Shown: piece after piece, positions 39,373-42,527 of the stretch | Layout of the letters: the number at the start of each line of letters is the position of its first letter | Position numbering within the stretch: position 1 is the first letter of the stretch | NCBI GenBank assembly: GCA_963663275.1 | Contig: OY760183.1 | Span: forward strand, 3,232,001 to 3,296,000 | Source of the DNA: Chloroflexota bacterium | Lineage (GTDB): Bacteria; Chloroflexota; UBA11872; VXOZ01 | Direction of reading: 5' to 3' | DNA: 64,000 bases | Position numbers and translations under genes: made by a program | Notes under the pieces: generated by a model | What the model was told of the DNA's origin: nothing | Database searches by the model: none | The model's input: only the letters and a program-made list of their open reading frames with translations

Positions 39373-40287
39373 ATGAAAATCTACATCTTTGCCGACCAGG
39401 AGGGCGTGGCCGGCGTCTTCAACCGGCGCGAGGGCTACCTGAACGCCAGCGAATACGCCACCATGGAACTGGCGGCAATCTGCGAGGCGCTCCTGGACAA
39501 CGGCGTCAGCGAGATCGTGCTGAACACGATCCACACCATGGAGTACCACAAGCTGCCAAAGCCGGTGCAAATCATCCACGGCCTGCCCCGGCACGACATC
39601 TTTACCGAGTGCCTCGACGAGACGTTCGACGCCGCCATGCTCGTCGGCTTTCACGAGATGGCCGGCAACCGCGAGAAGGGCTGCTGGCGGCACAGCATTC
39701 TGCCTCACCCCATTACGCGCGCCTATAGCGCCGTGGAAGGCATCTGGCTGAACGACCTGCTGGTGGGCGAAATCGGCATCTTCGTGGCGTTCGCGGGCAT
39801 CCACAACGTGCCGGCGGTGCTGAACACCGGCGACTACTGGGCCTGCCTGGAAGCCGAAGACCTGGTGCCCGGCATCGAGACGGTGGCGGTGAAGAAGGGC
39901 ACCAGCCACTTCAGCGCCATCTCCATGACGCCCCAGGCCGCGGCGGAAGCGGCGGCGGCAGGCGCGGTGCGCGCGCTGGACAAGATCGGCGCGGTGCAGC
40001 CCCTGAAGCTGGCAGGCCCGGTGACGCTCAAGGTGAAATACACCTTCGCCGAGCGCGCTACCGACGCCATGAGCGCGGTGGCCAACGCCTTCCGCATCGA
40101 CGAACAGACCGTGGCCGCCACCTATCCCAACATCGCCGCCGTGCGCGACAATCTGGGCAACCTGCGCGCGCCGGAAATGGAAATCTACGCCAAAGACTCC
40201 GGCTTCAGCCAAACCACCGGCTTCTTCACCCGCACCGGCGGGGAGCCGTACGAGAGCAAACCGACGTATCCGCCGCCACGCAGATGA
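39373..40287 (+). CDS. Peptidase M55 (DppA-like D-aminopeptidase) family protein
   Basis: Motifs MKIYIFADQEG, LVGFH, WRHS, VGEIGI, TGD, VAVKKG. Confidence 0.85.
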   Translation: MKIYIFADQEGVAGVFNRREGYLNASEYATMELAAICEALLDNGVSEIVLNTIHTMEYHKLPKPVQIIHGLPRHDIFTECLDETFDAAMLVGFHEMAGNREKGCWRHSILPHPITRAYSAVEGIWLNDLLVGEIGIFVAFAGIHNVPAVLNTGDYWACLEAEDLVPGIETVAVKKGTSHFSAISMTPQAAAEAAAAGAVRALDKIGAVQPLKLAGPVTLKVKYTFAERATDAMSAVANAFRIDEQTVAATYPNIAAVRDNLGNLRAPEMEIYAKDSGFSQTTGFFTRTGGEPYESKPTYPPPRR

Positions 40288-40407
40288 TGCAGCCGTCAAG
40301 TCGTCTGTTTGCCTATGGCTTCAGCGGCGCGTTCCCTGCGTAGGGGCGGTTCGCGAACCGCCCCTACCGCTGCAGCAGACCCTTGAAGACTGGAAAGGAA
40401 AAGACGT

Positions 40408-40635
40408 TTGGCACCGAATCGTGAGAGATTCTCCTGCGAGGTAGACTCAGATCTCCTGGCCGCTTTACGTACGATCGCTGATCGCGAAGGGCGCAAGTTT
40501 GAGGACGTGCTGGAAGACGCCATGCGCGACTATATTGAAGCGCGCGCACAGGAAGCGCCGCGCGCGTCCGTAATGGCACACTTCCGGGCCAGTCTCGATA
40601 AGAACCGTCAACTCGGTAAGTTGCTCGCCGAGTGA
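40408..40635 (+). CDS. Ribbon-helix-helix antitoxin-like protein with no intact toxin
   Basis: FSCEVDSDLLAALRTIADREGRKFEDVLEDAMRDYI is an RHH pattern. The stop overlaps a GTG-ACG-GAC start. Confidence 0.75.
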   Translation: MAPNRERFSCEVDSDLLAALRTIADREGRKFEDVLEDAMRDYIEARAQEAPRASVMAHFRASLDKNRQLGKLLAE

Positions 40636-40660
40636 CGGACTCATCCCCAAACGTCCGCTC

Positions 40661-40810
40661 AACAAAACAAAAGGAGCGCCCGGTGCACGTGCACCGCTGG
40701 CGCTCCTCTAATTTCCTGAGGCCGCTCCGCAGTCTCGTTACCGAGACCTGACGGAGGCGGCCCTGGATCTACAACTTACATCCATGGGCATCACCTCCTT
40801 TCTCTTGCGA
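40661..40810 (-). ncRNA. Candidate stand-alone small RNA or mini-ORF transcript
   Basis: Promoter TAGACA-18-TATGAT (40843-40814); AGAAAGGAGGTGATG; 15-codon ORF at 40785-40738; hairpin at 40720-40762; terminator at 40672-40707 followed by a U-rich tract. Confidence 0.6.
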
Positions 40811-40979
40811 CCCATCATACACTATGGGCGGCCACGCTGTCTACCCGGCTATCACGCCCAAGAGATGAGCAACCCCGATCGCTTCCTCATCACTCCCTTG
40901 CGGAGGACTTGGGCCGGTTACCAATAGTATCGCACTGACCGCTGCACCGACAGAGGTGGGGCAAGTAGGCGCCGCCGTC

Positions 40980-41740
40980 CCCCGTAGCGCAGGTTCGCAC
41001 GGGACGTGCGCGTAACGTGCGTCCGCTGCGTGGTATGGCGCCGCCGCCCCCGGTAGTGCAGGTTTGTAACCTGCATCTGCTGCATGGCCTGACGCCGCTG
41101 TCACCCGTCAGTCGTAGCGCGGGGGCTTGTCCCCAATACTGTCGCATTAACGTAGCGCGGGGGCTTGTCCCCCGCCGGGGTGTGAAGAGCGAAAAGCGAT
41201 CACCGGCGGTTGCGCATGAGCAAACGGCGCCCACATATCGACCCCGTACCTGCGCAGGTTGCAAACCTACGCTACCGGGGTGTGCGACGCGGTGTTTTCG
41301 CCATGACACGCAATGTGACAGCATTGGGGCCAGCCCCGCGCTACCCTACGCCAGAGGCGGGGGACGAGCCCCCGCGCTACTACCACGCCACAGGCGAGGG
41401 ACAAGCCCCCGCGCTACAATCACGCCACAGGCGGGGGACGAGCCCCCGCGCTACAACCACGCGACAGGCGGGGGACGAGCCCCAATGCTGTCGCATTAAA
41501 CACAATGAGAGTGAAAACAACGCTCGTTTCTCCGGTAGCGCAGGTTTGTAACCTGCGTCTTCCGTAGGGTCAATCCATTTCGTTAGCATTTCTCTTATTC
41601 CGGCGGGGGACAAGCCCCCGCGCTACGTTAATGCGACAGTATTGGGGACGAGCCCCCGCGCTACAATCACGCCACAGGCGGGGGACGAGCCCCCGCGCTA
41701 CAACCACGCGACAGGCGGAGGATAAAGCCCCCGCGCTACG
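40980..41740. repeat. Large REP mosaic: ~37-bp tandem family A units, a ~65-bp inverted repeat, and family F palindromes
   Basis: 41114-41178 is near-perfectly inverted at 41600-41664. GCGGGGGACGAGCCCCCGCGCTACAA.CACG..ACAG is repeated at 41357-41480 and 41644-41738. Confidence 0.9.
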
Positions 41741-41762
41741 TTGCGCGACGGCATCAAGGTGG

Positions 41763-42527
41763 TCACGGCGCTTGTGCCAGGCCCGCGTTGTGGAGGAAGG
41801 CCGTTAGCAGGTTGCGCATCTGTTCTCGGTAATGGGGTTCGTAGCGGGCGAACTCGCGCAGGTGGCGGGCCGCTTCCTCGTCGGGGTCGAACCGGTCGCC
41901 CATCAGGGCGTAGTCGGCGGCCAGTTCCCGGTTCCACACGCGCAACTCTTCCAGGGTGAGTTGCGGCTCGAACTGGAACCCGTAGGCATTGCCGTAGCGG
42001 AACGCCATGTTGATCCTGCGGTAGCGCCCGTCGCGGCAGAGCATGAACCCTTCCGCCAGGCGGGTCGCGCCCTGGGGGATGGAAAAACACTCCCCGTGCA
42101 GGGTCGGTACCAGGGGAACGGCCAGGTTGCCAAAGACCGGGTCGGCGTCGCCGGCGGCGGTCACGTCCAGTTTGCGCAGGCCGAACTGGTAGCCGCCCGT
42201 CGGTTCCACCGTGCCGCCCAGGGCCGTCGCCATGATCTGCGCGCCCAGGCAGACCCCCAGCGCCGGCGTGCCCCGCTCCAGCGCCCGGCGCAGGTACGCG
42301 CGCTCCTGGTGAATGGCGGGGTAATCGTCGTTGGCCGACTGCGGGCCGCCCAGCGCCACAATCAGCGCCACCTGCTCCAAAGGCGGCGGCGCAAAGCGGT
42401 CGAACGCCGGAGCCGACTCGAAGACGTTCAGGGGTTCCAGTTCAAAGCCGTGTTGCGCCAGCACGCCGCTGAAATTGGCGGCCAGGGTCTCCGGCTCGGC
42501 ATGGCGAATGATCAAGGCGCGTTTCAT
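41763..42527 (-). CDS. Class I glutamine amidotransferase-like protein with an altered catalytic triad
   Basis: LGGPQSAND and GVCLGAQ (catalytic Cys) are present, but the sequence reads FQFEPQ where FQFHPE is expected. Confidence 0.85.
   Translation of the reverse strand: MKRALIIRHAEPETLAANFSGVLAQHGFELEPLNVFESAPAFDRFAPPPLEQVALIVALGGPQSANDDYPAIHQERAYLRRALERGTPALGVCLGAQIMATALGGTVEPTGGYQFGLRKLDVTAAGDADPVFGNLAVPLVPTLHGECFSIPQGATRLAEGFMLCRDGRYRRINMAFRYGNAYGFQFEPQLTLEELRVWNRELAADYALMGDRFDPDEEAARHLREFARYEPHYREQMRNLLTAFLHNAGLAQAP

Follow-up and report, generated by a model that had tools for sequence, protein, structure and literature searches.

A small gene on the minus strand (40661-40807) was analysed in a stretch of 64,000 nucleotides (nt) from a Chloroflexota bacterium (contig OY760183.1), referred to here as the window. 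Judged from comparative sequence evidence, the RNA of this unit can be read, with roughly even confidence, as a translation-coupled bistable switch built round its own micro-ORF (open reading frame). The comparisons demonstrate the anatomy of the unit, its conservation and single-copy status, the covariation of two helices, the maintenance of the ORF and the dominance of constraint at the level of the RNA. A function centred on the RNA or the ribosome, given an even chance, was ranked above a peptide function, a ribosome decoy, a leader acting in cis and a toxin-antitoxin or mobile element.

Three short segments would form the switch. Segment 1 (GGAGGUGAUGCCC, 40786-40798) comprises the 3' part of the Shine-Dalgarno (SD) sequence and the spacer behind it. 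Segment 2 (GGGCCGCCUCCG, 40752-40763) is an internal look-alike of the anti-SD inside the ORF, and segment 3 (CGGAGCGGCC, 40720-40729), the 3' arm of a long hairpin, is an SD look-alike past the stop codon. In the closed form segment 2 would pair with segment 1 and bury the SD and the AUG, while in the open form it would pair with segment 3 and leave the SD free at the extreme 5' end. The ribosome would load on the open form only, melt the helix of segments 2 and 3 as it translates, and terminate in the loop between them, after which segment 2 would be free to re-pair with either partner. The scheme supposes that the predicted promoter drives the RNA, that ribosomes translate the ORF and that the helix of segments 1 and 2 is the first to form during transcription. 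The selected output would then be the engagement of the ribosome with the RNA, or the conformation or stability of the RNA, rather than the sequence of the peptide. The best guess at a role is a self-limiting sensor or buffer of initiation-competent 30S subunits, and a ribosome held at the 5' end would make the RNA more stable as well.

Extended Shine-Dalgarno sequence and alternative folds

The SD (AGAAAGGAGGUGAU, DNA AGAAAGGAGGTGAT, 40790-40803) matches the entire single-stranded 3' tail of the 16S rRNA by perfect complementarity over 14 nt and is invariant in 17 of 17 species. The SD-like stretch at the locus reads AGAAAGGAGGTGATG, and the 16S genes of the window's genome, read directly from that genome, end in ...GGAUCACCUCCUUUCU. 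The original prediction had given this match as 15 nt, of which 14 stand (40803-40790) and the 15th base is unpaired. The 14-mer, like each 12-mer inside it, occurs three times in the 3.53-Mb genome, namely in the two rRNA operons (on the opposite strand) and in the unit. Elsewhere in the genome the next longest complement of the 16S tail is 11 nt, found at three loci, and the unit holds the longest SD of its genome. About 4 nt separate the SD from the predicted 5' end. A CsrA-type sponge was considered for the CAUGGAUGU stretch of the genus, which resembles the CsrA SELEX (systematic evolution of ligands by exponential enrichment) consensus, and was dropped, as the motif is absent from most members of the family described below.

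The minimum-energy fold of a 152-nt RNA reached -81.9 kcal/mol (z = -7.99), and 0 of 200 shuffled sequences were as stable. In this single-sequence fold, GGAGGUG..GCCC pairs with GGGC.CGCCUCC, joining segments 1 and 2 and burying the SD and the AUG. The alifold consensus fold pairs GGCCGC.CUCCG with CGGAGCGGCC, joining segments 2 and 3 in the long hairpin (GGCCGCCTCCG...CGGAGCGGCC), which encloses the inner hairpin GGTCTCG-GTAA-CGAGACT. The long hairpin of the original prediction is thus present as the consensus structure; in the minimum-energy fold, which differs from it, the 5' arm of that hairpin is taken up by the SD and the AUG. When each conformer was forced by blocking the other partner, the genus means were -72.3 and -73.2 kcal/mol, with a maximum difference of 2.9 among 17 species. 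Across the family the difference between the conformers had a median of -2.4 kcal/mol, and 20 of 40 members lay within 3.

The unit in its genus and in Chloroflexota

The unit is single-copy in the window's genome, and all 16 same-genus genomes analysed carry it once each at 85-92% identity. Homology within the genus extends from the -35 box to the T-run, and the flanks on either side could not be aligned. Among 17 species, only two positions vary in the 56 nt from RNA position 7 to 62, both of them in a loop, and whatever differs between species of the genus is either confined to predicted loops or amounts to a compensatory or wobble change. In contrast, a neighbouring ribbon-helix-helix (RHH)-like protein is only 56-69% identical between species, while the M55 peptidase beyond it reaches 93-96%.

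Beyond the genus, BLAST against 401 genomes of the phylum returned the full unit in the genus only and short matches elsewhere. Three of these short matches were read and had the same anatomy in different letters. The shared order is a promoter, an SD and start of the form AAAGGAGGUGAUGCC(C/A)AUG, a tiny ORF, GGGCAUCACC complementary to GGUGAUGCCC, a second (C)GGUGAUGCC and a terminator. All GTDB species genomes were then scanned with the pattern GGAGGTGATGCC-N12-42-GGCATCACC, which gave at least 122 matches at at least 120 loci. An ORF filter asked for a start 8-13 nt past GGAGG, a length of 13-19 codons and a stop 3-19 nt past segment 2. Among the matches listed, 58 passed the filter and 54 were kept as units, 52 of them in records named as Chloroflexota and two unclassified. 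The named carriers were Roseiflexus, Chloroflexaceae, Herpetosiphonaceae, Thermomicrobiales, Sphaerobacter, Nitrolancea, Anaerolineae, Ardenticatenales, Dehalococcoidia and Thermobaculum. The 64 remaining pattern matches, mostly inside long ORFs, were not units, and 68 non-unit matches served as controls for duplex energies.

Four matches that passed the filter were dropped by record title: L066 and L173 (Streptomyces), L067 (Thalassobacillus) and L107, a metagenome-assembled genome (MAG) of Actinomycetota. A covariance model, R2, was built on alignment A2, which holds 40 of 50 non-redundant units, excludes near-duplicates and one truncated row, and contains zero sequences from the window's genus; its structure consists of the helix of segments 2 and 3 and the terminator. 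On the dropped rows, R2 gave no match at E <= 0.01 for L066 and L173 and only weak matches for L107 and L067. The two Streptomyces records carry both pattern motifs, an 18-codon ORF and a duplex like that of segments 2 and 3 (-28.2 kcal/mol) without an R2 match, and these look-alikes could be an analogue that arose independently in Actinomycetota.

In the window's genome, R2 found one match at 40669-40810 of the minus strand with 48.0 bits and an E value of 1.5e-12, covering model positions 1-137, and the next match had an E value of 0.04. Aligned to the family by R2, the window unit has segment 1 unchanged and segments 2 and 3 changed jointly, with GGCCGCCUCCG and CGGAG-CGGCC replacing GGCAUCACCG and CGGUGAUGCC; the helix of segments 2 and 3 then contains one non-standard pair. 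In an even sample of 151 phylum genomes with at least 90% completeness, 52 were positive, 51 of them with a single match. Whole taxonomic families were positive (10/10, 11/11, 5/5 and 3/3) or negative. The 99 negative genomes include 13 from two families of the same class as the window's genome (0/4 in f4 and 0/9 in f6). Two copies were found in one MAG of the pattern scan (L065 and L085), and the element of genome G353 is nearly identical to that of a Thermobaculum sp. record.

The features that define the family are all found in the window unit: an AUG about 8 nt past GGAGG, a micro-ORF of 12-20 codons that ends between segments 2 and 3, a segment 2 complementary to both segments 1 and 3, a terminator of its own and a single copy per genome. 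The extended SD is 11-14 nt long family-wide, with AAGGAGGUGAU as the minimum for membership and 14 nt in the window unit. As these comparisons indicate, the unit is its genus's divergent version of a single-copy small gene that is widespread in Chloroflexota. The original prediction had presented the unit as a novel RNA whose homologues would conserve the SD, the hairpins and the terminator; such homologues were found, and no Rfam family matches. Rfam 15 gave 0 matches at the gathering threshold over the whole window. In E-value mode over 40300-41300, the best hit was ftsZ-DE, whose 18.5 bits fell short of the threshold of 72.2 (E 0.84), and a search with three members from other lineages gave nothing relevant. 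The family is new in that it is absent from Rfam 15 and from the searchable literature, where no description was found, including in the available part of PMC2864571; the supplementary tables of large motif surveys, which were not covered, could hold one.

Covariation was assessed in two collections. In the pattern set, aligned independently with MAFFT and collected by a search that left segment 3 free, the helix of segments 2 and 3 is 92% paired and its end pairs covary. The duplex energy of this helix is -17.4 kcal/mol or lower in 53 of 53 scored units with a median of -24.8, compared with a median of -13.0 for the 68 controls. The second collection, A3, consists of 33 matches collected with R2, with an alignment fitted to the structure of segments 2 and 3. 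There the same helix is also 92% paired, with double changes at 9 of 11 pairs, while the helix of segments 1 and 2 is 90% paired versus 30-59% when the partner columns are slid. Of the pairs between segments 1 and 2, five show wobble changes and two show double changes (CCC:GGG versus CUA:UAG). The GGUGAUG of segment 1 is fixed in 33 of 33 rows; changes in segment 2 keep G-U pairing with segment 1, and changes in segment 3 match segment 2 by Watson-Crick pairing. The fixity of segment 1 presumably reflects a second demand on it, the match to the 16S tail. Taken together, both predicted helices covary and the two folds are mutually exclusive.

More divergent relatives were observed as well. Units in genus g5 of another family of the same class (L025 and L026) and in genome G092 (L047) share the SD, the spacer and the AUG with the family but carry different internal anti-SD stretches (CAUUCACCUCG and CACCCUCC) and ORFs of 21 and 19 codons, and R2 scores them at 28-30 bits in g5 and 12.9 in G092. 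In one sub-lineage of Chloroflexia (L076, L081, L090, L157, L165 and L178), the unit has a leader of about 45 nt with a hairpin, CACCUCCC...GGGAGGU, which forms a further pair of anti-SD and SD look-alikes. A genus-only model, R1, run over 98 genomes of the class matched the genus; its other, weak matches were other small genes that share the SD and a terminator. A separate small gene outside the family (L048:1501-1694, genome G060) has the same SD and spacer, GGAGGUGAUGCCUAUG, and encodes a basic protein of 29 amino acids, MAGKKVNKIKLSWRSKKANHGVKPNHGKG, which we take to resemble ribosomal protein bL37.

Locus, micro-ORF and rival explanations

The unit has a promoter-like site of its own, with a -35 hexamer TAGACA (40838-40843) and a -10 hexamer TATGAT (40814-40819) on the minus strand. 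Within the genus the -35 box reads TAGACA in 15 and TGGACA in 2 of 17 species, and the -10 box reads TATGAT in 13, TATGCT in 3 and TAGAAT in 1. The 18-nt spacer is ungapped throughout the 17-species alignment, its length constant and its letters variable. Since the hexamers are kept and the spacing is constant while the spacer letters vary, the pattern is as expected for a real promoter. It is the sole sigma-70-like site in 39800-41800, with 10 of 12 positions matching, where shuffled sequences lead to an expectation of 0.3 +/- 0.5. The invariant columns of the alignment start at C40807, about 7 nt past the -10 box. From this point to 40661, with its 3' end in the T-run, the predicted RNA measures about 145 nt. 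The intrinsic terminator (40661-40708) has a GC-rich stem (40708-40673) followed by UUUUGUUUUGUU (DNA TTTTGTTTTGTT), which ends at 40661, and the stem shows compensatory changes at all 13 pairs across the family. These data support a stand-alone transcription unit of about 140-150 nt with its own predicted promoter and terminator and an extreme SD. The original prediction had named this promoter with its 18-nt spacing, the terminator and the independence of the unit, and each is borne out by the sequence, including conservation that starts exactly at the predicted start site.

The micro-ORF (40738-40785, minus strand) has 15 codons and a TAA stop (40740-40738), starts with an ATG at 40785, 8 nt past GGAGG, and encodes MDVSCRSRAASVRSR. 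An apical stem UGGAU/AUCCA with an A/U-rich loop (GUAAGUUGUAG, 40764-40784) spans codons 1-7, and the two variable positions of the conserved stretch are in its loop. The inner hairpin GGUCUCG-GUAA-CGAGACU (40731-40748) holds the UAA in its loop and shows G-C to G-U and C-G to U-G changes within the genus. The stop codon lies 11 nt past segment 2 and 8 nt before segment 3, in the loop of the long hairpin as originally predicted. In A3, the first in-frame stop falls between segments 2 and 3 in 32 of 33 members, versus 3/33 and 2/33 in the other frames. The AUG lies 8 nt past GGAGG in most members of the family, and differences in loop length among close relatives in A3 are multiples of three. 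From the placement of the stop, the spacing of the AUG and the loop lengths, the frame appears to be used. A second SD-like motif (GAGG/GGAG) was observed within 14 nt past segment 2, shortly before the stop, in 29 of 61 non-genus members, versus 3 of 61 in the next 16-nt window; it might pause the terminating ribosome.

Yet the peptide is not the best-conserved aspect of the frame. In most lineages the frame through segment 2 gives G-I-T, in others A-S-P, so that constraint at the RNA level dominates. The 15 nt past the AUG are 64% A+T, compared with 44% for the whole RNA. Serine at codons 2-6 is encoded by AGU in 109 of 124 cases, and AGU is a rare codon in G+C-rich genomes. A dual-function RNA, one of the options in the original prediction, fits best with an ORF that is maintained and a constraint that lies mainly in the RNA.

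In the genus, the unit occupies a fixed place. By tblastn over 16 genus loci, the RHH-like ORF is present at 15 and the M55 peptidase gene at 14, while a GATase gene is found upstream at 8 of 16 loci, these loci being only 3.2 kb long. The RHH-like ORF (40408-40635, plus strand) has 75 amino acids and converges on the unit; its match to RHH_1 (E 0.011, 16.1 bits) is below the Pfam cut-off of 20.5, no NCBIfam model matches it, and no partner toxin gene is visible. The M55 peptidase gene and the RHH-like ORF are separated by a stretch that holds a perfect palindrome of 14+14 nt, GTAGGGGCGGTTCG/CGAACCGCCCCTAC (40340-40367), which could be a terminator or an operator. The 1-kb gap on the upstream side of the unit (40900-41760) is an array of palindromic repeats resembling repetitive extragenic palindromic (REP) elements, with the core GGGGACGAGCCCCCGCGCTAC, partly in a 37-nt tandem register and in both orientations. 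Genome-wide, this core has 567 copies (at most two mismatches) in 273 clusters.

Outside the genus, the neighbours differ. At 33 of 84 non-genus loci, in several orders, the unit is directly preceded, at a distance of 67-400 nt, by a same-strand gene for a small LysM-domain protein (examples are L098:3598-4083, L071:4972-5616 and L086:65-496). No LysM gene was found near the unit at the genus loci, and the best LysM homologue of the window's genome is far away. Homologues of the RHH, M55 and GATase genes were found at 0 of 84 non-genus loci, and no single neighbour is therefore common to all members. At the Roseiflexus loci the next genes are a convergent L25/Ctc-like gene and, behind it, a LexA-like gene, both named from their sequences. 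The LysM gene is reminiscent of SOS division inhibitors; a link to the SOS response, prompted by the LexA-like gene near the Roseiflexus units, was dropped, as a GAAC-N4-GT[TA]C box is near only 1 of 83 loci.

Several points weigh against the bistable switch. Transcription, the ends of the RNA and translation are all predictions from sequence, and the switch has no evident output. The near-equal energies of the conformers are partly automatic, as segments 1 and 3 resemble each other. The pattern set fixes segment 1 and the core of segment 2 by construction and A3 is model-fitted, both of which inflate the pair counts; since the helices hardly vary within the genus, their support comes mostly from other lineages. 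In a sister species (G012; L022, element 1532-1685), the 33rd member of A3, one extra nucleotide in the apical loop abolishes the stop, and the frame extends to 39 codons through the terminator, so termination at the exact spot is not indispensable. At a few Anaerolineae loci a same-strand gene follows after a hairpin that lacks a T-run, and there the unit might act in cis. Peptides within a sub-lineage are alike, with an N-terminal M-[DS]-x-S and with RA[AV]AS in the window's genus and some Anaerolineae, and a peptide function is possible. It is the last point that the strongest rival takes up, namely an ordinary micro-protein gene whose peptide of 12-20 residues is the effector, with the SD and both helices only tuning expression and mRNA stability. 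This account, which seems rather less probable than the switch and on the whole unlikely, is favoured by the ORF, start spacing and stop position that are kept (32/33), by the loop lengths that differ in threes among close relatives and by D or S at position 2 together with S at position 4 in 52 of 89 peptides. It sits poorly with a segment 2 that holds the most conserved nucleotides and yet is read in two frames, with serine nearly always being AGU, and with third codon positions that are invariant across 17 species while the RHH neighbour has diverged so far. The C-terminal halves of the peptides, moreover, vary freely, and one species has lost the stop.

The remaining accounts were given progressively less credence than either the switch or the micro-protein. 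A ribosome decoy, a 30S counterpart of 6S RNA, takes up the ribosome-binding or sequestering sRNA of the original prediction and is the boldest of the accounts. It would capture and hold 30S subunits by its full-tail SD, with translation of the micro-ORF as release and reset; segment 2 would set the fraction of RNAs that are open, and the unit would buffer or report the pool of initiation-competent ribosomes. The long SD a few bases from the predicted 5' end, its length throughout the family and its rank in the window's genome agree with such a decoy, as does a single-copy, housekeeping-like gene whose RNA encodes nothing else. It is nevertheless considered improbable, as a decoy must be present near ribosome levels, and the optimally spaced AUG and maintained ORF are what an ordinary message with efficient translation would show; no member of the family was detected in 99 of the 151 phylum genomes sampled, and a decoy would thus serve no universal need. 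Fainter still is the prospect that the unit acts in cis on a neighbouring gene, as a leader or attenuator of the leader-peptide type, or that it is the 3' end of an upstream gene's mRNA. The short ORF and alternative hairpins are like those of leader-peptide attenuators, the same-strand LysM gene ends 67-400 nt upstream at 33 of 84 loci of other lineages, and a same-strand gene follows directly at three Anaerolineae loci. In the genus, however, the downstream gene is convergent and no LysM gene is nearby; a separate terminator past segment 3 has a stem that covaries across the family, -10-like hexamers were seen by eye (uncounted) upstream of the units in the lineages inspected, and the absence of RHH, M55 and GATase homologues from the 84 non-genus loci leaves no common neighbour. 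An attenuator at the window locus was rejected because no gene follows on the same strand (40408-40635 is opposite) and the terminator ends the unit, although the ORF and the exclusive hairpins are those of an attenuator. The least probable account, with only a very slight chance, makes the unit the toxin-side partner of the adjacent RHH gene, a type I toxin-like peptide or a small mobile cassette, and is already largely refuted by distribution. The convergent, syntenic RHH-like ORF at 15 of 16 genus loci speaks for it, and an internal anti-SD that sequesters the SD is also known from type I toxin mRNAs, as far as the available part of PMC6733600 describes them. The orphan antitoxin of the original prediction, with the unit in the slot of its toxin, is a weak idea: the convergent RHH-like ORF of the genus matches RHH_1 only below the cut-off, and RHH homologues were not found at the 84 loci elsewhere. 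A type II toxin-antitoxin system was rejected on that sub-threshold match and because the unit is convergent rather than co-transcribed and is not a protein toxin gene. The peptide is polar, basic and hydrophilic with only 15 residues, unlike a type I toxin, as had been predicted. The mobile cassette, also proposed originally, was discarded: the unit has one copy per genome (one match in 51 of 52 positive genomes) and no flanking repeats, the upstream REP-like array being a genome-wide repeat. Its fixed syntenic slot in the sister species, with M55 at 14/16 and RHH at 15/16 loci, shows that it is vertically inherited and not mobile.

Significance and comparison with known systems

Hot springs, soils, sediments and wastewater plants harbour abundant Chloroflexota, and literature searches turned up no papers on small RNAs of this phylum. 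The unit adds a small gene that is single-copy in about a third of the sampled phylum genomes, and the bistable switch favoured here would be a three-segment switch that can be tested, with cultured members such as Roseiflexus, Sphaerobacter and Thermobaculum for experiments. It would offer a clean natural system in which an internal anti-SD mimic can be studied as it competes with the 16S tail. It also raises the question of what purpose is served by a switch that gates its own micro-ORF, the candidates being ribosome sensing, RNA stabilising and peptide making. If the decoy were true instead, the unit would buffer or report initiation-competent ribosomes in much of Chloroflexota.

6S RNA acts as a decoy for RNA polymerase and is released when the enzyme uses it as a template for synthesis. 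The unit is like it by analogy only, as a small RNA that would mimic the ideal substrate of a machine and be "read" for a short distance. In contrast to 6S RNA, the target would be the ribosome, and there is no relation in sequence or structure and no Rfam match. The aapA1 type I toxin mRNA of Helicobacter has metastable folds that sequester the SD (PMC6733600, as far as its available part goes). Like that mRNA, the unit has an internal anti-SD that pairs with the SD, and successive alternative hairpins would control the access of ribosomes. Compared with what the available part of that source describes, the peptide of the unit is hydrophilic and half as long, there is no evident antisense RNA, and the gene is single-copy and housekeeping-like across the phylum.

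The dual-function small RNAs SgrS/SgrT, SR1/SR1P and RNAIII/hld are reviewed in PMC12612679, consulted in part. The unit shares with them a small transcript ending in a terminator, as predicted, and a conserved RNA structure combined with a short frame. Unlike these RNAs, it has no known base-pairing target, its peptide is shorter (12-20 residues) and its frame is not conserved family-wide. In the STAB-SD of Bacillus thuringiensis, an SD-like sequence near the 5' end of the cry3A mRNA binds the 3' end of the 16S rRNA and protects the RNA. The unit likewise has a near-perfect extended SD with the core GAAAGGAGG a few bases from its predicted 5' end, and because of this position binding of the 30S subunit could shield its RNA from 5' decay. 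While no start codon follows a STAB-SD, the AUG of the unit is optimally spaced, its ORF is maintained and its SD would be gated by an internal competitor.

A close likeness is to the leaders of ermC and ermB and to trp-type attenuators, in which a short ORF with an SD is combined with mutually exclusive pairing of segments and the translating ribosome decides which helix forms. The available part of PMC6614838 reports that the trpL attenuator RNA, rnTrpL, acts also in trans. As in the leader-peptide switches, the unit has a short ORF with an SD and three consecutive segments that pair exclusively, and the ribosome would decide the helix. Unlike the erm and trp leaders, its transcript carries no regulated gene and no evident regulatory run of codons, and the switch would gate the SD of its own micro-ORF. 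It is a conserved stand-alone gene instead of a 5' leader, and would thus separate a leader-peptide switch from a regulated gene, two elements that are usually found together.

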